This document shows positions 4,213-19,496 of a stretch of DNA of 64,000 bases, one piece after another. Numbering within the stretch: position 1 is the stretch's first letter; every line of letters begins with the position of its first letter. The stretch is from IMG/VR virus record IMGVR_UViG_3300045912_000261, positions 32,001 to 96,000 of that record; one strand, given 5' to 3'. This DNA comes from a virus. The notes beneath the pieces were generated by a model. The model made no database searches, was not told the DNA's origin, and worked only from the letters and a program-made list of their open reading frames with translations. The position numbers and the translations under genes are program-made.

Positions 4213-4931
4213 TGTCAAAGTTCAACCAGCAGCAGCCCCCAGGAGAAGGTGGGCTGGGCTTTTCGCAGACAGATGAGGCAGGCGTCCCTGACTTCATCGA
4301 GCCGATGCTGGCCTGGCGTACCTGGCTCCTCCGCAAGGAGTGTGTCCTAGGTTCCACAAGCCTGACCCAGATCAAGTGGCCCTCAGGCCGGGTGCTCCAG
4401 GCCAAGTGCGCAGACGACAGGCCGCACAAGGCCCCCGACGAGAACTGCCGCTGCGGCATCTACGCGCTGACTTACCCGCAGCAGCCGTGGAGCTACGCAG
4501 CAGAATTCAGCACCGAGAGGTGGACGACTCTGGCGATCGTGGCCCTCTGGGGCAAGATCATCGAAGGGCCTCAGGGGTGGAAAGCTGAGTTCTGCTACCC
4601 TAAGCTCTTCATCCTCTGCCCCTCCACCGGAGTGCCGGAGCTCCGCTACCCCTCGCCCTACCCGGAGGACCCCCTGCAGCGCCGTCTCATTGGGAGGGAG
4701 ATCCTCTATCGCAACTGGAACGTGCCCGTAGTCTTTGGGCCAAGTACTCGTGAAGGGTGGCTTGACTACGAGGTCATGAACAAGTTCACGGAGGGGAAGT
4801 ACCACGCGGCCCAAGTCCTGAAGACGCTTGAGGGGGAGCACCCGGCCGACTGGCTGATGCACAGGGCCCCCTGGCTAGTAACCGGGTACCAGGAGTTCCA
4901 GCTCTGGAAGGAAAGTACTCTTGTGCCCTAG
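4212..4931 (+). CDS. Hypothetical protein with a C..H.AP...CxCGIYA metal-binding motif
   Basis: AWRTW, AKC...HKAPDENCRCGIYA, VALWGKIIEG. Coupled to the 47-aa ORF. Confidence 0.7.
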   Translation: MSKFNQQQPPGEGGLGFSQTDEAGVPDFIEPMLAWRTWLLRKECVLGSTSLTQIKWPSGRVLQAKCADDRPHKAPDENCRCGIYALTYPQQPWSYAAEFSTERWTTLAIVALWGKIIEGPQGWKAEFCYPKLFILCPSTGVPELRYPSPYPEDPLQRRLIGREILYRNWNVPVVFGPSTREGWLDYEVMNKFTEGKYHAAQVLKTLEGEHPADWLMHRAPWLVTGYQEFQLWKESTLVP

Positions 4932-5691
4932 GGGCCAGTTTGCCCCTGTAGGGAGCCTTACGCACTACAGGTTCCTTGAGGAACAAGGTGTCTTAGGGGA
5001 CTACCACCTCCTGCTAGCCCACAAGGTGCTGGAGGACCCTGATGGCTGGATCGATCTCTACAGACGCATCAGGGAACAGGGAAGAGAGCCCTTCGTGATC
5101 ATGGACAACTCCTTGATCGAGCTGGGCCGTCCCCTTCAGGCACCCGCACTGGCTGAAGCCTCCCGGATCGTAGATGCCTCGTGCCTCGTGCTTGCTGACG
5201 TGCTTTCTAACCGCCGAGCTACCGTCGAGCTCTCGGTGGCCATGCACTACGAGCTGCGGAAGATGAAGGAGGTCCCTCCCTTCCTTGCGGTGGTCCAGGG
5301 AGCCTCGTACGAGGATGCGCTACTTTGCGCAGAGGAACTAGCCTCCTTGGAAGGTGTGCGCTACCTCTCGATACCCAGAGTCGTAGCGGACACCATGGGG
5401 ACTCGGAAGCACCTGGTCAAAGAGGTCTACCGTAGGCATCAGCTCCCGATTCACCTCCTAGGCTTCTCTGAAGACATGGCAGATGACATCATGTGCACTA
5501 GTCTACCGGGGGTCATGGGGATCGACTCAGCTGTCCCCCTCCGGATGGGGCTCGCTGGAGTAGCCTGGGGCCCCCATCGGAAGACACCACCCCGACCGAA
5601 GAACTTCCTCGACAGCAAGGATGTTAATGTCCTCATGGTCGAAAACACAGTGGAAGTACGTAAGGCCATCGGACCCCAGGAAGCTACCTAA
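4921..5691 (+). CDS. tRNA-guanine transglycosylase-like (TGT/DpdA-like) TIM-barrel protein
   Basis: VIMDNS, VLADV, AVVQG, IHLLG and GIDS occur in the TGT order. It lies in the same gene cluster as folE. Confidence 0.65.
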   Translation: MCPRGQFAPVGSLTHYRFLEEQGVLGDYHLLLAHKVLEDPDGWIDLYRRIREQGREPFVIMDNSLIELGRPLQAPALAEASRIVDASCLVLADVLSNRRATVELSVAMHYELRKMKEVPPFLAVVQGASYEDALLCAEELASLEGVRYLSIPRVVADTMGTRKHLVKEVYRRHQLPIHLLGFSEDMADDIMCTSLPGVMGIDSAVPLRMGLAGVAWGPHRKTPPRPKNFLDSKDVNVLMVENTVEVRKAIGPQEAT

Positions 5692-5833
5692 GCACGACCC
5701 CGAGAAAGCTGTCAATCGACAAGCTGCCATATTTCTGGCGTCGTCAGTCCCAGCAAAACGGAGGTTGAGGGTCCATATCTACACCAAAGGGGCGCACCCC
5801 AGACTCCGGAGCGTTCTCGAGGACTGGTTCTAG
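5627..5833 (+). CDS. DWF-terminal microprotein 1 (...HPRLRSVLEDWF*)
   Basis: Ends GAC TGG TTC TAG. Start uncertain (ATG 5621 or 5627). Confidence 0.6.
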   Translation: MSSWSKTQWKYVRPSDPRKLPKHDPEKAVNRQAAIFLASSVPAKRRLRVHIYTKGAHPRLRSVLEDWF

Positions 5834-6000
5834 TGCGCTGCGAACTAGAAAGAGCGGCGGCGGAGCATGTTCGCTTCCTTCTAGGGATGAGCTCTGCTGA
5901 CAGGCGGGAAGCCTTCGGACGCCTCCAACACCTAGAGTACGCAGCGCGGCTCCGCTCTGAGTACGCCCTTCTCTGGTTCGAGCTTACGGACTGGTTCTAG
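5833..6000 (+). CDS. DWF-terminal microprotein 2, 55 aa (MRCELERAAAEHVRFLLGMSSADRREAFGRLQHLEYAARLRSEYALLWFELTDWF)
   Basis: Hand-translated. GTG start overlaps the upstream TAG (TAGTG). Confidence 0.75.
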   Translation: MRCELERAAAEHVRFLLGMSSADRREAFGRLQHLEYAARLRSEYALLWFELTDWF

Positions 6001-6131
6001 TGGTAGGCGAGCCTTTGCAGTGGCTTATGAAGTATGTCCTGACCAGAGAGGTCTCGCTGCCTTCGGCCTCGTGGCTTCTTAGCCCCCGTAAGAAGCGCCA
6101 GCTGCTCGGGTACCTCAATGACTGGTTCTAG
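6000..6131 (+). CDS. DWF-terminal microprotein 3, 43 aa (MVGEPLQWLMKYVLTREVSLPSASWLLSPRKKRQLLGYLNDWF)
   Basis: TAGTG coupling. Paralogous to microprotein 4. Confidence 0.78.
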   Translation: MVGEPLQWLMKYVLTREVSLPSASWLLSPRKKRQLLGYLNDWF

Positions 6132-6262
6132 TGTATCTGAACTTGGTACAGTGGCTGCTGCAGAGAGTTCTCGGGAGGGAGATTAGCTTGCACTCAGCCT
6201 TCTACCTCCTTAGCGCTGTCGAGTCAGCTGACCTTCGATCCAGTCTCGAGGACTGGTTTTGA
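6131..6262 (+). CDS. DWF-terminal microprotein 4, 43 aa (MYLNLVQWLLQRVLGREISLHSAFYLLSAVESADLRSSLEDWF)
   Basis: TAGTG coupling. Ends GAC TGG TTT TGA. Confidence 0.78.
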   Translation: MYLNLVQWLLQRVLGREISLHSAFYLLSAVESADLRSSLEDWF

Positions 6263-6417
6263 TACAGGTAGAAAGTCCAGCCCAGAGCTGGATGAGAGTG
6301 CTTTTAAGTCCTGAGTACTACTCTCTGTGGTGGAGGATGCACAAGTACGAAGCCTTCAAGAGGGGCTGCGAACCTTACGGATGGGCAGTCGTCTGCGAGA
6401 TGCATGACTGGTTCTAG
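6259..6417 (+). CDS. DWF-terminal microprotein 5, 52 aa (MIQVESPAQSWMRVLLSPEYYSLWWRMHKYEAFKRGCEPYGWAVVCEMHDWF)
   Basis: TTG start in a TTGA 4-nt overlap. Confidence 0.75.
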   Translation: MIQVESPAQSWMRVLLSPEYYSLWWRMHKYEAFKRGCEPYGWAVVCEMHDWF

Positions 6418-6418
6418 C

Positions 6419-6595
6419 TTGTTGGCCCTAACAGAGCCTGAATCAACTCAGGAGTGGGTATTCCTACTCTTGGGTACGCAGTACCCCTCGTGGTGGCGCG
6501 TGAATCGCTTCTACAGTTTCGCTGGCCTCGCAGTACTAGGGTCCCCCGACGGGCTGGCGGCCACGGTCGTGAGGGAGATCCAGGACTGGTTCTGA
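6419..6595 (+). CDS. DWF-terminal microprotein 6, about 58 aa (MLALTEPESTQEWVFLLLGTQYPSWWRVNRF...ATVVREIQDWF)
   Basis: TTG one base after the upstream stop (alternative ATG at 6404). Similar to microproteins 5 and 7. Confidence 0.75.
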   Translation: MLALTEPESTQEWVFLLLGTQYPSWWRVNRFYSFAGLAVLGSPDGLAATVVREIQDWF

Positions 6596-6756
6596 TGCCG
6601 GATCCCGATCCAGTACAGTGTTGGGTGCGCCTTCTCCTGATGACCGATATCCACGCCGATTGGCGAAAGGCTCAACACCACAACTTCAAAGCTCGCGCGG
6701 AGCTAGGAGGGTGGCACGAGATCGCCATCGTGGTAGCTCTCGCGGACTGGTTCTAG
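6595..6756 (+). CDS. DWF-terminal microprotein 7, 53 aa (MPDPDPVQCWVRLLLMTDIHADWRKAQHHNFKARAELGGWHEIAIVVALADWF)
   Basis: TGATG coupling. Confidence 0.78.
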   Translation: MPDPDPVQCWVRLLLMTDIHADWRKAQHHNFKARAELGGWHEIAIVVALADWF

Positions 6757-6932
6757 TGCCTATAGGCTCTCGAGCAGGCTATCGCCGCAGTCTGGAGTGG
6801 CACACCTCGTATCGAGCCAGCAGGATTCTCCGAGAAAAATCCGTCCGAAAGCATGAACTCGAGCTGGTGGAGAAGGTTGCGAACCCGGACTACCGCAGGG
6901 CGGTAAGAGAACATCTGGCTGACTGGTTTTAG
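6756..6932 (+). CDS. DWF-terminal microprotein 8, 58 aa (MPIGSRAGYRRSLEWHTSYRASRILREKSVRKHELELVEKVANPDYRRAVREHLADWF)
   Basis: TAGTG coupling at both ends. Its stop overlaps the polA start. Confidence 0.78.
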   Translation: MPIGSRAGYRRSLEWHTSYRASRILREKSVRKHELELVEKVANPDYRRAVREHLADWF

Positions 6933-9475
6933 TGGCTACTCAAAGTCCTTCCGTGGCAGGGGGCCAATGCGCCAACTGCCCTTTCACGAGCCAGGCCGTA
7001 GTACGGCCCGATCTTCGTCGTGCTCCTCTGCTGATAGTCGGAGAGGCTCCTGGCGCGCAAGAGGTGCGCACGGGAGTTCCCTTTGTAGGTCCCTCAGGCC
7101 AGCTGCTCTGGCAGACGTTCAAGCGTCTTGGCATCGAGCGCGGCCAGGTCGCTGTAACGAATGCACTTCTTTGCTCGGTTCCTCCCTCCATGAGCAAGTC
7201 GGGAGGAGCCCTCCGTCAAGCTTGCCTAGCTTGCCGTAGCCGCCTCCTGGCAGACGTCGAGCTCGTGGACCCCAAGGTTATTCTTGCCTTGGGCAATACG
7301 GCTATGCAGTCCCTGCTGGCCAAGTTCTCGCTCAAGATCACGCAAGAGCGGGGCAAGGCAATTGAGTTCGACGGACGATGGATCATCCCCGCACTACATC
7401 CTGCCGCTGTACTTCGCAACCCTGGTGACTTCAAGCGACTTGCTGCCGACCTTTCCTACGCGGTCAGCCTTTCCAACGGAGGCCGCCCCAAGGATCCGGG
7501 TGAGACACGTTACCAAGTTGTTCGGACGGAAGAGGATCTGATCAAGGCCTGCAGGGTCCTCAAGAAGCACCGCACTCTAGCAGCAGACATCGAGACCTCG
7601 GACGTCAACCCCCGCAAGCACTGGATTCAGTACTTGGGCATCTGCTGGGAGAAGAACAAGGTAGCCATCTTCCCTCCCCGAGTACGGGTAGGACATGGTG
7701 CCCGTAATGACAGGTCGGTAAGCTCCGGTGCCGAGTCGACGGTAAGCTCCGGTGCAGGCGACGACGGGGTGCCTGTGGCCGAGTTGTACAGGAGTACTTG
7801 GACCCATCCAGACTTCAAGGCTCTCTTCGAGGACCCAGCGATCACTTGGGTGTGGCATAACGGCAAGTTCGACACCAGCTTCCTGCAGCAGGTAGGCCTG
7901 CCCGCCCGCACGGATGAGGACACGATGCTGCTCCATTACCTTTTGGACGAGGTGCGGGGGACGCACGACCTCAAGCAGCTGGCATCGGATCTCCTGGGGG
8001 CAGAAGACTACGACGCCATCGTCAAGAAGTATGCGGGCAAGGGCGAGAACGGTTGGGCAAAGATTCCGCCGCACATCCTTGTCCCCTACCTCGCTAGGGA
8101 CGCTGACTACACCTTCCAGATCTTCCCCATCCTTCGGGAGAGGGTCCGGAAGATCCCTGATCTGGAAGAGCTGTACACGACCCTGATCATTCCTGCCAGC
8201 CATTTTCTGCAGAGGGTCGAGAGGGCCGGGATGTGGGTCTCCTTCGAGCATCTGGAGAAGGTGGCTGCGGCTCTGGCCCAGGAGAAGGATGAAGTCGAGA
8301 CCCGAATCCAGGAGATTGCGGAGCAGTACTGGGACCCCGATGAGTACGCCAAGGCCACGGACTCCAAGTCCATTCCGCTAGAGTTCAACCCCGCATCGCC
8401 CCGGCAGGTAAGCTGGCTCATCTACAGCCGCCTCCGACTCCGCGTCCCCGGGAGGGCTGGGATCAGAGACACCAGAGAGGAAACCCTCCGGGAGCTTCCG
8501 CCGCACCCCCTGGTGACGAACCTGCTCAAGCTGCGGAAGATCAACAAGCAGCTTCAGACGTACGTTGAGGGCATCCTACGAGAGGTGGAGGCGGATGGGA
8601 GAGTTCACTCTACCTATCTCATTCACGGAACGTCTACCGGACGGCTCAGTTCTCGTAACCCTAACGCTCAAAATATCCCACGGGACCCACTTATCCGGGA
8701 TATCTTTCAAGCTCCTCCCGGCAAAATCCTGGTTGAGGCCGATTTTGATCAGGCAGAGCTTCGAATGCTCGCCCACCTATCGCGCGATGAAGAGCTGCTC
8801 CGCATCTACCGCGAAGGCCGCAAGCTCCATGATGAGGTTGCTGCAGACCTCTACGGCCCCAACTACACCGAAGAGCAACGGATGCGAGCCAAGGCAGTGA
8901 ACTTCGGGATCGTCTACGGACGGACGGAGTTCTCTCTGATGCACGAGTTCAAGATTGGCTTGCCGGAAGCCCAGCGGATGGTGCACGACTGGTTTGCAAG
9001 GTTCCCCCAAGCCAAGAGGTACATTGATGCCTGCCGGAACGCTCCGTTGCAGGGTAAACAGCTTGTGAGCCCCTTTGGTCGTCGTAGACGCTTTCCATTC
9101 GTGCCCGAAGCGTCCCGCAAAGAGATCCAGAACGAAAGCGCCAACTTTGCCATCCAGTCAGGAGCCAGCGATCTCACGCTGCTGACAGCCATGACGGCTG
9201 AACCCGAGCTGGACAGGATTGACGCCAAGATTGTGAACCTCGTTCACGACTCCATCCTCGTTGAGTGTCCTGAGAACCAGGCGATCACCGAGAAGGTGCT
9301 CCAGGTCTTGCAGGAGGCATCTGCGCGGGTGGTCAAGCATCGCCTCAAGGGGATTCTCGAGTTCCCAATGGACGCGAAGGTTGGTCGGGGGTGGGGGACC
9401 GCCATGAAAGGAGATGGTTGGTGGGAGTACAAGGCCAAAATGGGGGATCTCGAGCGCGCTCTCGGCCCCCAGTAG
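6932..9475 (+). CDS. polA: Family A DNA polymerase with an N-terminal family-4 uracil-DNA glycosylase-like domain and a 3'-5' exonuclease
   Basis: UDG: CANC, GEAPG.QE...G.PFVGPSG, HPAAVLR. Exo: DIET, HNGKFD, YLARDAD. Pol motifs: A EADFDQAELR, B RMRAKAVNFGIVYG, C VHDSI. Confidence 0.95.
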   Translation: MATQSPSVAGGQCANCPFTSQAVVRPDLRRAPLLIVGEAPGAQEVRTGVPFVGPSGQLLWQTFKRLGIERGQVAVTNALLCSVPPSMSKSGGALRQACLACRSRLLADVELVDPKVILALGNTAMQSLLAKFSLKITQERGKAIEFDGRWIIPALHPAAVLRNPGDFKRLAADLSYAVSLSNGGRPKDPGETRYQVVRTEEDLIKACRVLKKHRTLAADIETSDVNPRKHWIQYLGICWEKNKVAIFPPRVRVGHGARNDRSVSSGAESTVSSGAGDDGVPVAELYRSTWTHPDFKALFEDPAITWVWHNGKFDTSFLQQVGLPARTDEDTMLLHYLLDEVRGTHDLKQLASDLLGAEDYDAIVKKYAGKGENGWAKIPPHILVPYLARDADYTFQIFPILRERVRKIPDLEELYTTLIIPASHFLQRVERAGMWVSFEHLEKVAAALAQEKDEVETRIQEIAEQYWDPDEYAKATDSKSIPLEFNPASPRQVSWLIYSRLRLRVPGRAGIRDTREETLRELPPHPLVTNLLKLRKINKQLQTYVEGILREVEADGRVHSTYLIHGTSTGRLSSRNPNAQNIPRDPLIRDIFQAPPGKILVEADFDQAELRMLAHLSRDEELLRIYREGRKLHDEVAADLYGPNYTEEQRMRAKAVNFGIVYGRTEFSLMHEFKIGLPEAQRMVHDWFARFPQAKRYIDACRNAPLQGKQLVSPFGRRRRFPFVPEASRKEIQNESANFAIQSGASDLTLLTAMTAEPELDRIDAKIVNLVHDSILVECPENQAITEKVLQVLQEASARVVKHRLKGILEFPMDAKVGRGWGTAMKGDGWWEYKAKMGDLERALGPQ

Positions 9476-9990
9476 CCTTCTGCGTCAGAGAAGCTCTCAC
9501 CGCCCTGGAGGCGGGCTGGAGGCCTGCACGAGGCTCGCACATCACACCCTCAGTCCTCCGCAGACTTGCACAGGAGGCAGAACTTGCAGCGGCCGACTTA
9601 GTTGAGCGCTCCCGGCGCCACCAGAAGGCTCACTCGGGAGTCGTAACGACCTTCCCTGTGCAGTTAACCCTTAGCGACCTGGAGACCATCCTTGACAAGA
9701 GCGAGGACTTAGGCGAAGGGCTGGAGGGGAAGCTTGTTACAGCCCGAAACACTCTGGCGGGAGCGTACGATCGGATGAAGGAGCAGCAGCTCAGGGAGGG
9801 AGTCGAGGACCTCCAGGAGATCCTCCCCGAAGACGAGTGGATCTCGTGGAACGACCTCCAGAAGGAAGCTGCCGAGCAGGCAAGCATGACCAGGGCTTTG
9901 GTGGGTAGGGTAGTCTCCCACCTAATCGACAAAGGCGTAGTGCTTCGCAAGGTCGAAGGGGGCACTACCTACATCAAGGCGGCTACATGA
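9421..9990 (+). CDS. Hypothetical protein with a C-terminal winged-helix-like region
   Basis: AAGGAG RBS before GTG 9421. WISWNDLQ...RALVGRVVSHLIDKGVV resembles a wHTH. Confidence 0.55.
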   Translation: MGVQGQNGGSRARSRPPVAFCVREALTALEAGWRPARGSHITPSVLRRLAQEAELAAADLVERSRRHQKAHSGVVTTFPVQLTLSDLETILDKSEDLGEGLEGKLVTARNTLAGAYDRMKEQQLREGVEDLQEILPEDEWISWNDLQKEAAEQASMTRALVGRVVSHLIDKGVVLRKVEGGTTYIKAAT

Positions 9991-10492: not shown

Positions 10493-10903
10493 GTGCTCAT
10501 TCTCTGTGGGCATGGGTATAGAAGCCCCATTGTCGTGGAGCGTGAAAGCAGGATGATCGAAGCCCTCTCCCTCGAGCCCGCTAAGAACTGTCTCAGTGGC
10601 ATCTTCCCCCTCGACTACGAGGATGACATTGCCCTCATGAGGGCAGTGCGAGACCTCCTTTTCAGCGAGCAGTACGAGGCAGGAAACCCCGAATACATCA
10701 AGCCCAGGGGGGAGGGAGTAGTAGAGAGGATCAACTTCCTCTTCCGGGGCTTTGACGGGGACACTCTGCGGGCGTTCAACTTCACTCTCAGCCACAGAAG
10801 ACCTCATGTCGGCAGCTACGACTCTGGAACGCACAACCTCGCTGCCCGCTCGATGGGCTTCACGGTCCATCACTACCTAACCGAGTGGCTCGACTGGTTC
10901 TAA
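10493..10903 (+). CDS. Hypothetical protein ending in the DWF motif (...HYLTEWLDWF*)
   Basis: Ends GAC TGG TTC TAA. Start uncertain (GTG 10493 or ATG 10553). Confidence 0.6.
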   Translation: MLILCGHGYRSPIVVERESRMIEALSLEPAKNCLSGIFPLDYEDDIALMRAVRDLLFSEQYEAGNPEYIKPRGEGVVERINFLFRGFDGDTLRAFNFTLSHRRPHVGSYDSGTHNLAARSMGFTVHHYLTEWLDWF

Positions 10904-12429: not shown

Positions 12430-12517
12430 CCCGACTGCCGTTCTAGCTGCCTTCGCAGCCACTATGAAGAAGCTGAACGTACAAGTTCACATCATCACCA
12501 GTAGGGACTGGTTCTGA
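12422..12517 (+). CDS. 31-aa DWF-terminal microprotein (MPDPTAVLAAFAATMKKLNVQVHIITSRDWF)
   Basis: GTG overlaps the upstream gene end, and TGATG couples it to the dNMP kinase. Starts MPDP like microprotein 7. Confidence 0.65.
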   Translation: MPDPTAVLAAFAATMKKLNVQVHIITSRDWF

Positions 12518-13182
12518 TGTTGCTGGGGCTCACCGGAGACGCCTACGCAGGCAAGGATACAGCGTACAGGATCATCAAGGAGACCTACCCACAAGCTGTC
12601 AACTTGAAGCTTGCTGGTCCTCTCAAACAAGCTGTCGCCGCCCTACTGGGCACGACGGTTGGGCGGATCGAAGAACTGAAGACGCACGAGCACCTTTGGC
12701 TCGAGTTCGGTGGCACGAATCCACCACTGGATATCAAGCCCCTTACTATTCGAACCCTGTTGCAAAGAATGGGTTCCGAAGTAGGTAGGGATCTGTTCGG
12801 AGAGGACTTCTGGGTCGATCAGCTTCTTCCACATCCTGAGCCAGGCACGCTTGCTAAGCCGAAAGGGGTTCCCCAAACTGGGGAGGGCCCCTTCGTAATC
12901 ACTGACGTCCGGTTCACGAACGAGGCGCAGCGGATCAGAGACCTCGGAGGGTACGTCTTCAAGATCGTGCGTACGGGAGAACCGGTAGAACTAGGTGCCG
13001 AGTTGAAGGGACACCGGTCTGAGGAGGGAGTTCCTCCGTCTCTCATTGATGCCACGATTCCCAATCCAACCGGCCGTCTGGAAGAGTTTAAGGATAATCT
13101 CCTGTTCTGGGTAGAAAGGACGATGCGATGGCAAAAGAGGACGGAGTCACGTACAGAGCGTATGACTCCGCCGGCAAAATGA
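12517..13182 (+). CDS. Deoxynucleoside monophosphate kinase
   Basis: LGLTGDAYAGKDT, LK..VA, R.LLQRMGSEVGR, VITDVRFTNEA, HRSE. Confidence 0.9.
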   Translation: MLLGLTGDAYAGKDTAYRIIKETYPQAVNLKLAGPLKQAVAALLGTTVGRIEELKTHEHLWLEFGGTNPPLDIKPLTIRTLLQRMGSEVGRDLFGEDFWVDQLLPHPEPGTLAKPKGVPQTGEGPFVITDVRFTNEAQRIRDLGGYVFKIVRTGEPVELGAELKGHRSEEGVPPSLIDATIPNPTGRLEEFKDNLLFWVERTMRWQKRTESRTERMTPPAK

Positions 13183-13352
13183 TCTGGGAGCGTATCATCC
13201 TCCCGGGCCTACCCGTAGAACCCCCAAGCGATGTACTGAAGATTGCCTCGAGGTACACCGCTCAGGGTCCCCACGGCAGCCCTATGGAGATGGAGCTTTA
13301 CGAACCGAAGCCCCGCCTAAGGCGCAAGACGGGTAAGAGCCTAGAACAGTGA
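13128..13352 (+). CDS. Hypothetical protein
   Basis: GAAAGGA RBS. Coupled to the next ORF. Confidence 0.5.
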   Translation: MAKEDGVTYRAYDSAGKMIWERIILPGLPVEPPSDVLKIASRYTAQGPHGSPMEMELYEPKPRLRRKTGKSLEQ

Positions 13353-13555
13353 GGCCCTACTTTATCAGACGCAGAAGTCGCTGGCGGTACCTACGGTGGG
13401 AGGTACGACGGGAATGTGTCTCAGCAACGACTGAAGGCCCACGCAGCATCCTGATCGCCCGATGTCGCTACAGACGCGATGCTGAGACAATCAGGAACGA
13501 CTGGAACACGAAGCACCTCCTAGAAGTGCGGAGAGCCGCGCACCTGAGTTGCTAG
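13349..13555 (+). CDS. Basic hypothetical protein (last gene of the left arm)
   Basis: GTGA overlap with the upstream gene. Confidence 0.45.
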   Translation: MRPYFIRRRSRWRYLRWEVRRECVSATTEGPRSILIARCRYRRDAETIRNDWNTKHLLEVRRAAHLSC

Positions 13556-13630
13556 CGGTAAGCTCCGGTGCCCGTAATGATGGGACTAGGTGCCCGAGTA
13601 GTCTGGGTACCGTAACGGCTGGTAGGTTAG

Positions 13631-13667
13631 GAGAAGGGAGAGGCGGCGCAGGTACCTCTCCCTCCTC
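13631..13667. terminator. Hairpin at the convergence of the two arms (possible bidirectional terminator)
   Basis: AGGGAGAGG (13635-13643) pairs with CCTCTCCCT (13655-13663). Confidence 0.5.
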
Positions 13668-13737
13668 GTTGCTCCAACCCGGCCCGAGCGGATCGGAGCC
13701 TCCCCAGGGCTAGCGGGGGAAGGGCCGCCCCAGGAAG

Positions 13738-14132: not shown

Positions 14133-16346
14133 TTACTCCTCCGCAGGGGTGACAGTTGCCTTAGGTCGCACCCTGGTAAGCGTGGCCTCCGGTCGAGCTA
14201 GGGGAACGATGGAGGCGCGGTACAGAACCGGTGTAATGGTGGCCGCTGGGGTGGCAGCAGCTAGGAGGACGGCGCGGGGGGCTGCAACCAACGTAAGGAT
14301 GGCCGATAGGCCGAAGAGGAGAGTGCCCCCGACCGAGCCATCTTCCAGCAGTGCAGCCAGGTCGCCGTCCTGGAGGGAAGCATTAACCAGGGCCTGGTAT
14401 GAGGCTGCGATGGTCTCCGCGGCTTGCCGAAACTCGTGGATTGCGAGGGAGGACCCTTCAGCGGCGGCAAAGAAGTCCTCGGCGAAGAAGGGAGCCGTGA
14501 CGACACCGGCATCGACGCCCAAGGAGGCGTCTGCCGCAGCCAGCACGGCTGTAGAGGAAGCCGCGTCGTCCTCATCAAAGCTGTCCTGCCCGCCCAAAGT
14601 GACAGCAACGGAAACGTTCTCCCCCAAGGAGCCTGTCTCCGCCCCGGCAACATCCTGAACAATGGAGAGGGTGCTCTGGTCGCTACTTGAAGCCGTCTCC
14701 GCTTCCGCCAGAGCAATGGAGGGGGTACCTTCGGTTGCGGTCCCTTGCTCTTGGATGGTAAAGGACGCCTCTATCGAGGCAGTCTCCGACAAGGTTGCTG
14801 AGTCGCTACCGCTCGGCGTCCCCGTATCCCCTAAGCTGCCCTCGTCGGCGCCGCTTAAGGTGTCCGACCCAGTTAGGGTACCTGAGATGCTCGGTGCCTC
14901 CGTCGCGGTGCTGACTTCGGCAGCTGAGGTACCCGTGTCGACGGACGTGTCCTGTCCGGTTGGGGTGTCCGCGGCATCCAATACTGCAACGGAGGTTGCC
15001 GTTTCGGTTCCTGAGGAAGTATCTCCGACACCTGCTAGAGCAATAGCCGGGGCCGGGGCCTCTGACGCAAGCAAGGTCTCGGCAGGAGGATCGACCACCA
15101 CGCCCATAGCGGAGGTGCCTTCGGCTCCCGAGATCGCCTCGGAACCTTGCATGAGGAAGGGGTCCACAGCCTCGCTGCCCGAGCCCGTCTCGCCACCGCT
15201 CAGGGTAACCGATACAGAGGCTGTCTCCGTAACCGTAGCCGACTCGCTTGCGTTCTTCGTAACCTGGTCTTCAAGGGAGCCGTTGTCGGTTGCTGCCCCG
15301 GAGTCACTGCTGGACGCAGTCACGGACAAGGTAACGGTTCCCTCAGCAGCAGTACCTGTGTCCCCAGCGGTTTGAGCCAACCCCGCGTTCAGGTCCTCTG
15401 CTGCCGAAGCCTCCGTAGAGGAGAGGCTGGCGGCTATGCTCGGGGCCTCCGTTGAGCTTCCGCTCTCGCCGTCCCCCAGCTCGATCCCTGCTACAGCTTC
15501 ACTGCCGGTTGCCGTGTCTCCGTTGGAGGCGGTGGCTGCTAGGGACGCCTGCTCTGTAGCTGAGCCTGAGTCGGAGCCGCTGACTGCGACCTGCTCGGTG
15601 ACTGATCCCTGATCGGCACCTGCAGCCGTGTCCGAAGCTCCTAGAGCAATGTCGGCAGCTGTATCGGTTAGGGAAGCTGCCTCAGAAGCGGCCGCAGCAG
15701 CAGTTAGTGCAGACGCCGCATCCGCCGCGGTAGCGGTATCCGTCCCAGAGAGGCCTGTAGCTGAGGTCTCGCTTCCGGTTGCTGTTTCTGTCCCGTCTAG
15801 GGCAGCAGCGAGAGCCGCGGTCTCTGAGCCTGCAGCCCCTTCAGTTGCCGAAGTGGCAATTCCCGCGTTGGCATCCGTTCCTGTTCCAGACTCGGTGGCT
15901 GAGGTGCTGGCACTTAGCGTTTGCAGAGCGTCGGAGGCAGTAGCCGAGTCCGCATTGCTTAGGGCTATTGCAGTGGCCTCAGCTACGGTAGCCGAGTCCG
16001 AGGCCGTACTGGTAGCCTCGGAGGATGCTGTTTCAGCAGCAGCTGCGGTCTCTGAGCCGGACGTAGTCGCCGCGATGGAGGTAGTAACGTCAGCACCAGT
16101 AGCGGTGTCGGCGTTACCGAGGGACACAGCAGTTGTCCCCTCGGCTTCTGTACCGACGTCAGTCCCCGTCAGGCTAGCTGTCAGGGTGCTTAGTGCATCA
16201 GCGCCCGAGGCAGTTTCAGCCCCCGAGATAGTAGCGCTTAGGGTACTGGTGGCGTCTGCTGCCGACGCACTGTCAGAGGCCTCTACATTCTGAGACCCTG
16301 CGGCACTAGGTAGCCGGAGGAGTAGCGTCCGGCGAGAGCGGGCCAT
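14133..16346 (-). CDS. Ala/Ser/Thr-rich repetitive fibre-like virion protein
   Basis: 737 aa of degenerate SDSA/SETA/GTET repeats, strongly acidic. Confidence 0.7.
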   Translation of the reverse strand: MARSRRTLLLRLPSAAGSQNVEASDSASAADATSTLSATISGAETASGADALSTLTASLTGTDVGTEAEGTTAVSLGNADTATGADVTTSIAATTSGSETAAAAETASSEATSTASDSATVAEATAIALSNADSATASDALQTLSASTSATESGTGTDANAGIATSATEGAAGSETAALAAALDGTETATGSETSATGLSGTDTATAADAASALTAAAAASEAASLTDTAADIALGASDTAAGADQGSVTEQVAVSGSDSGSATEQASLAATASNGDTATGSEAVAGIELGDGESGSSTEAPSIAASLSSTEASAAEDLNAGLAQTAGDTGTAAEGTVTLSVTASSSDSGAATDNGSLEDQVTKNASESATVTETASVSVTLSGGETGSGSEAVDPFLMQGSEAISGAEGTSAMGVVVDPPAETLLASEAPAPAIALAGVGDTSSGTETATSVAVLDAADTPTGQDTSVDTGTSAAEVSTATEAPSISGTLTGSDTLSGADEGSLGDTGTPSGSDSATLSETASIEASFTIQEQGTATEGTPSIALAEAETASSSDQSTLSIVQDVAGAETGSLGENVSVAVTLGGQDSFDEDDAASSTAVLAAADASLGVDAGVVTAPFFAEDFFAAAEGSSLAIHEFRQAAETIAASYQALVNASLQDGDLAALLEDGSVGGTLLFGLSAILTLVAAPRAVLLAAATPAATITPVLYRASIVPLARPEATLTRVRPKATVTPAEE

Positions 16347-16886: not shown

Positions 16887-17428
16887 TATACGACTCCGAT
16901 CATCGTGAAGCCGAACACGGGCCAGTATGAGGACGTTATAGCACTGGGTGTAAAGCTAGAAGGCAGGGGGAGCGCTGAAGCCTGTGCACGGACGCCAGCA
17001 GAATCCATACCAATAGAAGAGGTGGTCAGCCGGAAGTAAGTGCCCGTCGTGTCAGAGTGTGCGAGGGCAATGAAGTAGAGCCCCGCCGGGTATTCTGTGT
17101 CGGTGACGTTATGGGTCTGAATGGTCGATGTGCCCGACTGGGCAACGCTCCCCGTGGACAGAAGCAGGTTGCGCTGCTTGTCATAGAGCCCGATGTCCCG
17201 GTTCCCTGACGCCGTTCCCCCGTTGTAGGACCAGAAGTCCGTGACCACGAAGTCCGTCTCCAGCACCACGGGGAAGAACCGAGCCTGGTTCGCAGACGGC
17301 CACGCGCCTGAGGCACCAGACTGGCCACAGACGCGTGACATATTCCCGACCATAGAGTGCTCAGAGAGCGTCGAGACTGCGCCCGAGGCAGGAAGGGAAA
17401 CCTCCTTAACAGGCCAGATCGGGCTCAT
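16886..17428 (-). CDS. Putative virion protein, paralog of 16347-16886
   Basis: Same shared motifs. Coupled stop/start. Confidence 0.7.
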   Translation of the reverse strand: MSPIWPVKEVSLPASGAVSTLSEHSMVGNMSRVCGQSGASGAWPSANQARFFPVVLETDFVVTDFWSYNGGTASGNRDIGLYDKQRNLLLSTGSVAQSGTSTIQTHNVTDTEYPAGLYFIALAHSDTTGTYFRLTTSSIGMDSAGVRAQASALPLPSSFTPSAITSSYWPVFGFTMIGVV

Positions 17429-17772
17429 GCGTGCTTCAGTACCTTCCAGGGAATCGAGCGGCCAGTGCCCCTAACCTGCTTGATCGAGAAGCGCAGGGAA
17501 TTGGTATCCGTGAGCTCGTTAGAGAGAGGCTCGGACGGCCACGTCTTTGTGTCAGCCGGCTGCGCATCTGCAACTATCTGGAACAGGGCTACCCTCTCGG
17601 TGCCTCCCGTGAGGGTCATCTGGTAGCCTCTGATCTCCAGGAGGTCGCCGTTCGCCAGGGCGTTGAGGTCGAGGACCAGTTCGAATACTCCGGCGACGTT
17701 CGGCGAGGACAGGAAGTGCTCCGTACCGATCGTACAGGACTGGGTGCCCGAAGCGTATGCGGTAACAGCCAT
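17425..17772 (-). CDS. Hypothetical virion protein
   Basis: Coupled ORF in the tail region. Confidence 0.6.
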   Translation of the reverse strand: MAVTAYASGTQSCTIGTEHFLSSPNVAGVFELVLDLNALANGDLLEIRGYQMTLTGGTERVALFQIVADAQPADTKTWPSEPLSNELTDTNSLRFSIKQVRGTGRSIPWKVLKHA

Positions 17773-19496
17773 TACGGACTCACATTCCTTACGACCCTTG
17801 CCCTAAGGGTTCCTGAACCCAGATCCACTGTGCCCCCGGTCCGGTTCATGATCGTAACCCTGACCGTGTCTGCGGCGGAGACGAATCCGTGTAGAATCCA
17901 GGAGCCACCGTTAGTTTCCACCGACGAGTGGTTTACTTCCACGAAGTCCCCCACAGCGGCTCCCGTTGCCGTCAGAGTTGTTGAGGCCGACGCCCCATCA
18001 GCCAGCGATGGGGGGTCGTACGTAGCCGTGGCGACGATCACGTCGGGGGTAAACAGCGTGGTGTCGACTGTTGTCGAACCCAGGAGGTTGCGGTAAGCCC
18101 TGTTGGAGGATGCTGTCGTAGTATGCCCTGCTGCCTTGTTGGCAAACGTCGTAACAGTGCCCACGAAGCGGTTGTCTGCGAACAGAATGCCCGAGCTTGA
18201 GCCCGTTGCTCCAGAGCCCTCGGCAAAGCGTAGGACGACGTTTGCAGTGTCGAAGGTATTCCGACGGAACCAGATACGGTGGCCCTTCTCCAGCTTGATC
18301 ACACGGGTGTCACCGTGGCCAACATCGGTGAATACGTTGTCGTCGATCTCCACGTCCCGGGCGGACTGGCTTGCTGCGAAGCCGATAGAGACGCCATTCC
18401 ACCAGTAGTCGAAGACGTTGCCTACGATCTTGACGCCCCGTACGCCCTGGATCTGGAAGGGGTTATTGCCCAAGTAGCTCGCGTCGTCACGGCCTCCGTT
18501 GCAGTAGTTGTTGGCGAAGATGATGTCGTTGTGGACGGTAGAGTCAGTCGGGTCTTGTACGTGAGAGAAGAAGGCCGCACACCTTACGCTGTTGAAGACG
18601 TTGTGGGCAACTACGACCCCTTGGGTCTTAGTTGTTAGGTCCGCCTGCGTGGGGATAATGTGGTACGCAACAGCTCCAGCGGTGCCGCGGCACTTCTCGA
18701 AGTAGTTACCCACGATGCGGATGTTGCGAATGACGGCGAAGGTTGAACCTGAGTTGGGCTCGATGTCGATTGTCCCAGGCATGTCCGTGCGCGTGCTGTT
18801 GAGGAAGGTGCATCCCTGGATTAGAACGTCCCGACCATCAATGATTGTGATGGCGTTCCTGTTGTCTTGGTTGATCCCGTCGAAGCGGCAGCCGACGATC
18901 TTGATGTACCTGTTGTGTCTCTCCACTCCGGCAGAGTGCGAAGAGGCAAGGTACAAACCGTCAGCACGGTACCCTCGGAAGTAGACATTCTGGATCAGTA
19001 CGTCGTCCACTGCTGAGAGCGACATTAGGTGGACGTTTTGTCCCGTGGCAAACCCATCAACGTCTACGGTCCCACGGAGCTGGAGATCCCTGAAGACCAG
19101 GTTTCGCCGGTTGGTTGCAGGGTCAGCAGTTCCTCCGGTGCCTGGGTTGACCTTAATCAGGTACAGAGGGGCTGTGCCCGTACGCTGCTTGATGATGGAG
19201 CCCCAGCCCTCTCCCCGGAGAGTGACGCTGTCAGCAGCTACCTCAAGGTCTGAACAGGAGTAAGTACCGCGGGGGAAGAACACGGTACCACCGGCAACTT
19301 CGGCTGCGTCAATGGCTGCCTGCACCGCAGTGGTGTCGTTCGTTGTTCCGTCCCCCGTGGCACCGTAATCCTTCACATTGAAGACCTGGGCTACGGCTAG
19401 TGAATAGACGTGCTCTCCAAAGTCCTCCAGGTTTACGGCCGAGAGGGGTGTTGCTGTTGAGGGGCTATTCTGCCACCCATAGTTGGTCCAAGGCAC
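17772..19496 (-). CDS. Tailspike/depolymerase with a right-handed beta-helix (pectate-lyase-3-like)
   Basis: VFNVKDYGATGDGTTNDTTAVQAAI, VFFPRGTY and I.GN.F repeats. Confidence 0.85.
   Translation of the reverse strand: MPWTNYGWQNSPSTATPLSAVNLEDFGEHVYSLAVAQVFNVKDYGATGDGTTNDTTAVQAAIDAAEVAGGTVFFPRGTYSCSDLEVAADSVTLRGEGWGSIIKQRTGTAPLYLIKVNPGTGGTADPATNRRNLVFRDLQLRGTVDVDGFATGQNVHLMSLSAVDDVLIQNVYFRGYRADGLYLASSHSAGVERHNRYIKIVGCRFDGINQDNRNAITIIDGRDVLIQGCTFLNSTRTDMPGTIDIEPNSGSTFAVIRNIRIVGNYFEKCRGTAGAVAYHIIPTQADLTTKTQGVVVAHNVFNSVRCAAFFSHVQDPTDSTVHNDIIFANNYCNGGRDDASYLGNNPFQIQGVRGVKIVGNVFDYWWNGVSIGFAASQSARDVEIDDNVFTDVGHGDTRVIKLEKGHRIWFRRNTFDTANVVLRFAEGSGATGSSSGILFADNRFVGTVTTFANKAAGHTTTASSNRAYRNLLGSTTVDTTLFTPDVIVATATYDPPSLADGASASTTLTATGAAVGDFVEVNHSSVETNGGSWILHGFVSAADTVRVTIMNRTGGTVDLGSGTLRARVVRNVSP

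Follow-up and report, generated by a model that had tools for sequence, protein, structure and literature searches.

Eight consecutive open reading frames (ORFs) of 43-68 codons, each ending in Asp-Trp-Phe (DWF) directly before its stop codon, lie on the + strand at positions 5627-6932 of a 64,000-nt stretch of viral DNA (the window), directly ahead of the DNA polymerase gene polA. The window comprises bases 32001-96000 of IMG/VR record IMGVR_UViG_3300045912_000261, which is 112,533 bp long with 59% G+C; positions refer to the window unless given as record positions. The word GAYTGGTTYTRR is found 10 times in the window, always on the + strand, against 0.07 copies expected from shuffles. Two of these copies fall outside the array, at the ends of a 116-aa and a 17-aa ORF (D1 and D2 below). 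The features are as follows, with lengths in amino acids (aa).

C1, 5627-5833, + strand: 68 aa, ending VLEDWF-TAG; no paralogue found
C2, 5833-6000, + strand: 55 aa, GTG start within TAGTG, ending ELTDWF-TAG; no paralogue found
C3, 6000-6131, + strand: 43 aa, ending YLNDWF-TAG; paralogue of C4
C4, 6131-6262, + strand: 43 aa, ending SLEDWF-TGA with Phe codon TTT; paralogue of C3
C5, 6259-6417, + strand: 52 aa from TTG 6259, ending EMHDWF-TAG; member of the C5-C7 three-helix family
C6, 6419-6595, + strand: 58 aa from TTG 6419, ending EIQDWF-TGA
C7, 6595-6756, + strand: 53 aa, ending ALADWF-TAG; predicted three-helix bundle
C8, 6756-6932, + strand: 58 aa, ending HLADWF-TAG with Phe codon TTT, stop overlapping the polA GTG; no paralogue found
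polA, 6932-9475, + strand: 847 aa, uracil-DNA glycosylase (UDG), 3'-5' exonuclease and family A DNA polymerase; no DWF end
D1, 10553-10903, + strand: 116 aa, ending EWLDWF-TAA; strong coding score
D2, 12464-12517, + strand: 17 aa, ending TSRDWF-TGA, stop overlapping the ATG of a deoxynucleoside monophosphate (dNMP) kinase gene at 12517-13182

The description of the array in the original prediction was borne out in most respects: all eight ORFs have the DWF ends reported for them, and they are joined by TAGTG, TGATG or TTGA overlaps or by a 1-nt gap. The residue at −5 (counting the last residue as −1) is encoded by CTC, CTT, ATG, ATC and CTG, the Phe codon alternates between TTC and TTT, and the stop between TAG and TGA, with TAA in the dispersed copy D1. 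Coupling of the array to the polymerase holds only as the TAGTG overlap at 6930-6934, and such tight junctions are common in the genome. The upstream gene (4921-5691), which had been called TGT-like, has no Pfam or PHROG match.

Three starts can be placed in more than one way. C1 may begin at ATG 5621 or 5627, ~65 nt into the upstream gene, or at TTG 5765, giving 22 aa. For C5, the call in the protein library is 41 aa from ATG 6292, and an alternative C6 start at ATG 6404, inside the C5 tail, would give 63 aa.

The tripeptide is under protein-level selection as a free C-terminus

DWF-stop ends occur on 25 ORFs of the record and NWF-stop ends on three (hereafter tagged ORFs); every one of them is encoded on the + strand. 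The next commonest C-terminal tripeptide among + strand ORFs occurs five times. A single internal DWF is found in the genome, in polA, where it belongs to a clade-conserved WFxRFP motif whose W687 is invariant in 14 viral relatives.

Scored by codon log-odds, with the 35 longest ORFs as training set, 27 of 27 tagged ORFs had their best score in their own frame, including all eight array members and those of 17 and 29 aa; the other two frames almost always scored negative. Judged from sequence, the eight ORFs are real small-protein genes. Their bodies had been described as largely unrelated, which is true of C1, C2 and C8 but not of C3 and C4 (E 6e-7) or of C5, C6 and C7 (E 1e-5 to 4e-6), which form two sets of paralogues. 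When the proposed comparison of substitution rates was run on these paralogues, the proportion of non-synonymous differences (pN 0.41-0.44) was below that of synonymous ones (pS 0.58-0.93, saturated), and the tail was invariant. The duplications are thus old, with the bodies under protein-level selection and the tail held fixed throughout.

An AlphaFold2 model of C7, built from a three-sequence alignment, is a three-helix bundle (predicted local distance difference test, pLDDT, 88.9; predicted template modelling score, pTM, 0.65) whose last five residues lie outside the helices at lower confidence than the core. It has no Foldseek match in the PDB, and fold searches gave only generic helical matches (Z below 6). 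The three-helix bodies resemble designed mini-binders.

We scanned both strands for all 9-mers with ≤1 mismatch from GACTGGTTC. On the + strand, the only variants standing before a stop were the synonymous GAT (once) and TTT (four times) and AAC, which encodes Asn (three times), whereas 16 other variants occurred at background frequency and never before a stop. The stops after the tag are TAG, TGA and TAA in the genome's usual proportions, with TGG in 0/28; the flanks of the word show no conservation, and TTC and TTT are at equilibrium in the tails. GAC encodes the Asp in 24 of the 25 DWF tails, compared with 69% of Asp codons overall, but we dismissed this excess as evidence of a nucleotide-level signal: genome-wide, GAC accounts for 85.5% of the Asp codons that precede T, so that the excess is not significant after codon-context correction. 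A reading of GGTTC as a tRNA T-loop was also dropped, as position 57 is not a purine and Rfam gave no match.

The variant scan, stop usage, flanks and codon context together show that what is constrained is the identity of the residues and their terminal position. Protein-level selection maintains the tripeptide, which is required as a free C-terminus, and the earlier argument that selection sees a peptide with a free C-terminal end, as opposed to a DNA word, is well supported by the variant scan, paralogue comparison, codon context and frame scores. Across the 27 tagged ORFs the constant part is [D/N]-W-F-COO-, and nothing is fixed beyond the last three residues. The [LIM]-x-D-W-F rule proposed for the tails therefore describes the array, where −5 is [LIM] in 8/8, but not the genome, where it is [LIM] in 12/27 (L7 S7 R3 I3 E2 M2 among the residues at −5, with Ser in 7). 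At −4, the residues D, E, N and W predominate, with D, E or N in 11/27.

Carriers of the tag and their distribution

A gene map of the whole record, made by simple codon-model calling, holds 189 genes; ~14% of the phage's genes, about one in seven, are tagged. The + strand early/middle arm runs from 94.8 kb, across the record end, to 45.2 kb, and a late block on the other strand (45.7-94.4 kb) encodes sheath, a Mu gpT-like capsid protein, portal and terminase; the gene content of the record points to a contractile-tailed phage (myovirus) of hot-spring mats. The early/middle arm carries all 28 tags, leaving the 48 late genes without any (P = 1.2e-4), and the first 32 early genes likewise have none. 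Outside the window, groups of tags are found at record 6.2-10 kb and 13-16.2 kb, and a further two tags at 106-112 kb. The primase-helicase-like protein, the DUF669 protein resembling single-stranded DNA-binding protein (SSB), Sak4, the ligase and polA carry no tag.

Tagged products range from 17 to about 200 residues (median 58) and comprise three-helix mini-proteins, two membrane proteins, peptides of 17-29 aa and a cREC domain, most of them mutually unrelated. Pfam and PHROGs searches with the eight microproteins and 12 other tagged proteins gave a match only for the cREC protein (E1N, record 106324-106659), in which cREC_REC domain PF20274 (1e-25; 90.5 bits against a Pfam cut-off of 27) spans residues 17-100 and is followed by an extension ending NWF. 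A WF end is found in 0/119 other cREC homologues of this protein, which stop two to six residues earlier. In its model (pLDDT 92.5), the extension is a short, less confident helix after the domain. The original idea of a variable body with a constant tail is thus upheld by a tag that sits on unrelated bodies and has been appended to a cREC domain.

Both tagged membrane proteins (record 9475-9714 and 111445-111921) consist of hydrophobic helices, a basic segment and then the tail. By the positive-inside rule, basic segments of membrane proteins lie in the cytoplasm, so that the tail of these proteins would be on the cytoplasmic side.

Around record 12989-13703, two frames of ~205 codons, overlapping by ~500 nt, each run to a DWF-stop. 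The coding signal shifts from one frame to the other, as might result from overprinting, from a frameshift or from an error of assembly. The space between these frames and the next tagged gene is taken up by a 27-aa ORF that has its own GGAG.

Relatives of the tagged proteins were sought at several levels. Among 5.8 billion proteins of near length, D1 retrieved only itself, and the ESM Atlas gave no usable match for it. A HMMER profile of C5-C7 run against 1.84 billion representatives found only C5-C7 and one spurious repeat protein. Relatives of polA (≤47% identity; 21 loci, 10 whole records) show neither DWF nor any other over-represented end. The contig search for runs of small ORFs ending in DWF-stop that had been suggested earlier, carried out as a pattern scan for two tails 107-182 nt apart in viral, metagenome and genome contig collections, returned false positives alone among the matches listed, namely chance pairs, out-of-frame tandem repeats and a low-GC satellite. 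The satellite, on metagenome contigs of 35-41% G+C, is built of 12-nt repeats (read DLIP...) and a conserved closing word of ~20 nt that begins GACTGGTTTTAG; despite its likeness to DWF-stop arrays, it is a repeat at the nucleotide level. Literature searches on DWF tags and on shared C-terminal tripeptides in phages retrieved no description of such a tag.

Candidate readers and competing explanations

It is quite likely that the DWF/NWF end is a tag with one common reader. In the original proposal all members plug into one partner, as putative adaptors, decoys or anti-defence factors; that part of it stays an inference. The overall explanation that we favour, and hold to be probably correct, is an address tag on early/middle accessory proteins for which a proteolytic outcome is the preferred one; that outcome itself, a degradation or processing signal, is put forward tentatively. 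As a short linear motif, the tag would be recognised through its Trp and Phe side chains and its terminal carboxylate by one cytoplasmic receptor. That receptor would be a host AAA+ protease or the papain-like peptidase encoded by the phage, and a shared signal of this kind would give the tagged accessory proteins a common, limited lifetime.

We rank proteolysis first because of precedents in phage lambda and Streptococcus mutans, because the tag marks orphans that look dispensable and is absent from core enzymes and virion proteins, and because a peptidase gene lies among the tagged genes. Several early proteins of lambda are short-lived via terminal degrons. Three C-terminal residues suffice for degradation by ClpXP in S. 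mutans, where the tripeptides are LPF, AAL, ETV and VTL (PMC5143411, PMC10782952). Bacterial AAA+ degrons, ssrA (...LAA) as well as those of S. mutans, resemble the present tag in that about three free C-terminal residues suffice, are portable and bring unrelated clients to one reader. They differ in being small and aliphatic, or LPF, whereas the tag is DWF, is phage-encoded and is a candidate degron only; it ends in W-F, unlike ssrA-type C-motif 1, which has small aliphatic residues in the last two positions.

The peptidase gene (P0126, record 6926-7618) encodes 230 aa and matches the 'peptidase' PHROG phrog_16701 at 2e-23. It directly follows the tagged ORF A4, behind a GGAGG, and its end overlaps the tagged ORF A5. 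Gln44, Cys50, His178, Asn196 and Trp198 are invariant in 16 sequences of its family, which has an NSWG motif, and the family profile matches xylellain (3ois) at 3.4e-19 and then cathepsins, with 136 PDB C1 sequences matched. With no long prodomain, P0126 is, on these conserved residues and profile matches, an intact papain-like C1 cysteine peptidase. The S2 pocket of papain-like enzymes prefers bulky hydrophobic residues, and some of these enzymes are C-terminal exopeptidases. By its gene position, P0126, a cytoplasmic cysteine peptidase, is the most concrete candidate for the reader, although we think it unlikely to be the actual one.

Several observations weigh against an address tag with a proteolytic outcome. 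Domain scans of ~70 phage proteins revealed no Clp, Lon, FtsH, PDZ or clamp. The P0126 family is widespread, with over 1,380 proteins, and the flanks within 10 kb of its phage relatives (44 viral loci) show no shared C-termini, so that peptidase and tag are linked by position alone. The tag was found in no related genome by the searches described above, and no RNA run is among the sequencing runs listed as containing the phage. In the model, the C-family tail extends only ~5 residues past the last helix; for so short a reach, a surface pocket is a better fit than threading through an AAA+ pore.

A tail that stays near its folded body is also what would be expected if it docked on a hub that is not a protease, such as the polymerase or replisome, a sliding clamp, RNA polymerase or, as cargo, the procapsid interior. 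We rank this explanation second and consider it unlikely. In the tail an acidic residue is followed by aromatic ones and a free carboxylate, and D, E or N often stands ahead of it at −4. Genes of DNA metabolism lie scattered among the tagged ones, and stop/start coupling links tagged genes to those for polA, the ligase and the dNMP kinase; the core replisome proteins themselves, however, are untagged.

Precedents for docking of this kind exist, and each departs from the tag in its defining residues or its carriers. The SSB tip (DDDIPF) and the acidic tails of T7 gp2.5 and gp4 dock with a terminal Phe and carboxylate in pockets of replication partners, the gp2.5 and gp4 tails on T7 polymerase, and they are the closest analogues from phage replication; a family A polymerase is common to both contexts. 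In those systems few carriers serve many readers, whereas here the carriers are many, and the phage's own SSB-like and helicase-like proteins are untagged. Pro at −2, as in the SSB tip, occurs in 0/27 tails, all of which have Trp at −2 and Asp or Asn at −3.

Defining residues of the sliding-clamp motifs are lacking as well. The bacterial beta-clamp motif QL[SD]LF has a Gln that is absent at −5 here, and −4, aliphatic in that motif, is occupied mostly by the residues named above; D-W-F resembles the D-L-F and D-M-F forms of the clamp core [SD]-[LM]-F, yet Trp is present in 27/27. For the PIP-box, Qxx[LIM]xx[FY][FY], Gln is found at −8 in 0/27 and [LIM] at −5 in 12/27, and the final pair is W-F. 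The domain scans also turned up no clamp gene for such a motif to bind.

Encapsulin cargo peptides and the HK97 protease tail, of ~10 residues, dock inside an HK97-fold shell and are encoded beside the shell gene. Like the present set, they equip diverse bodies with one short C-terminal peptide, but the DWF tag has three residues and its genes are in the early/middle arm, outside the late module, and include two for membrane proteins, which are unlikely capsid cargo.

The closest formal analogue of the tag is the [LIM]-[DES]-[WF]-COO- signal of the eukaryotic cytosolic iron-sulfur assembly (CIA) complex, a proven docking signal that is necessary and sufficient for docking clients in iron-sulfur (Fe-S) protein maturation (PMC10245660). 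In both cases an acidic and aromatic tripeptide with a free carboxylate is carried by many unrelated proteins, which the CIA signal brings to one machine. The order of residues differs, with the acid at −3 and Trp at −2 here in place of an acidic residue or Ser at −2 and a hydrophobic one at −3. Fe-S-type cysteines are found here only in the UDG domain of polA, which is of family-4 type (GEAPG, HPAAVLR) and untagged.

The close packing of tagged genes raises a further explanation, which we regard as improbable: nascent DWF at the stop might slow termination or promote re-initiation and so tune the downstream gene. Within ≤10 nt of 24 of the 28 tails lies the next start, some tagged ORFs have merely 17-29 codons, and polA and the dNMP kinase gene lack an obvious Shine-Dalgarno sequence. 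In seven cases the start codon is within the tail itself (ATGACTGGTTCT, read as MTGS), at record positions 9330, 9970, 13690, 13892, 14073, 14224 and 14378, to which window position 6404 can possibly be added. The products that start there begin MTGS or MTGF (MAVTGS for the ligase), and these N-termini are a side effect of the DWF codons. Special translational coupling of tagged genes was rejected, as tight junctions in the automatic gene list are about equally common for tagged (60%) and untagged + strand genes (56%). Neither a stop codon nor a release factor is preferred, and for four tags there is no gene close downstream. The bodies evolve under protein-level selection and adopt a fold, as in the C7 model, and the tag has been appended to an enzyme domain. 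Known arrest peptides need longer conserved stretches, and a TnaC-type comparison finds only three conserved residues here.

Slightly less probable still is that the tails have no common partner and serve as an intramolecular hydrophobic cap or are the legacy of one ancestral microgene. The tandem paralogues would suit such an origin, and the C-family bodies are small, helical and Trp-rich, so that an aromatic end could pack on the bundle. Yet the tail is invariant between paralogues whose synonymous sites are saturated, the same residues end a cREC alpha/beta domain, membrane proteins and a 17-aa peptide, and in both models (C7 and E1N) the tail is outside the helices, at confidence below that of the core.

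The remaining proposal casts the 12-mer RAYTGGTTYTRR as a signal in DNA or RNA (recombination junction, operator, processing site or modification target). It would draw on word variation that consists of transitions alone, on the word's position at cassette boundaries in head-to-tail arrays and on the phage's 7-deazaguanine pathway, but is close to refuted, given that the word is in frame at the ORF end in 28/28, that TGG is absent where about a quarter would be expected for TRR, that six non-degenerate positions have no variants, and that the flanks are unconserved, codon choice follows genome bias and Rfam gives no match.

An array of precursors for ribosomally synthesized and post-translationally modified peptides (RiPPs) does not fit either: only three residues are conserved, compared with about 10 or more in a RiPP leader or follower, and no maturase family was found among the scanned phage proteins, in which the queuosine set accounts for the sole radical-SAM-pathway genes.

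Genome context and what a phage address code would mean

The phage is found in hot-spring and microbial-mat metagenomes, and contigs from four runs are identical to the window, leaving no polymorphism for a population test. The record encodes 7-deazaguanine pathway genes (GTP cyclohydrolase I, QueD and QueC), an ECF-type sigma factor, a SNF2 helicase, macro and cREC domains, a phosphoribosyltransferase (PRTase), three HNH genes and an ATP-dependent ligase.

Two tRNA-like elements lie in the early/middle arm. A 74-nt tRNA-Leu(CAA) at record 15425-15498 was called by ARAGORN and Rfam, and a 75-nt tRNA-Ser(CGA) at record 16222-16296, which begins at the base directly following the TAG of the tagged ORF B7, was called by ARAGORN but not by Rfam. 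Both are short for class II tRNAs, and a TROVE/Ro60 + vWA gene (record 17420-18982) is located 1.2 kb downstream, so that they might be Y-RNA-like tRNA mimics.

A more far-reaching form of the address-tag explanation, which we offer as speculative and think improbable as it stands, is that the tagged mini-proteins are a phage library of interchangeable adaptors, a natural targeted-degradation system within a wider class of phage C-terminal address codes. Each fast-evolving body would grip a different host or phage target, and the constant DWF end would plug into one effector, the phage papain-like peptidase or a host AAA+ protease.

To our knowledge, C-terminal tripeptide addressing in cells is known from peroxisomal import, Fe-S delivery and Clp degrons; a private C-terminal code on a seventh of a phage's own genes has not been described previously. 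If its reader is found, the tag would give a functional handle on dozens of orphan early proteins together and may reveal a new regulatory layer of infection, through timed turnover or through recruitment or destruction of host factors. It would also provide protein engineering with a portable three-residue tag from a thermophilic system.

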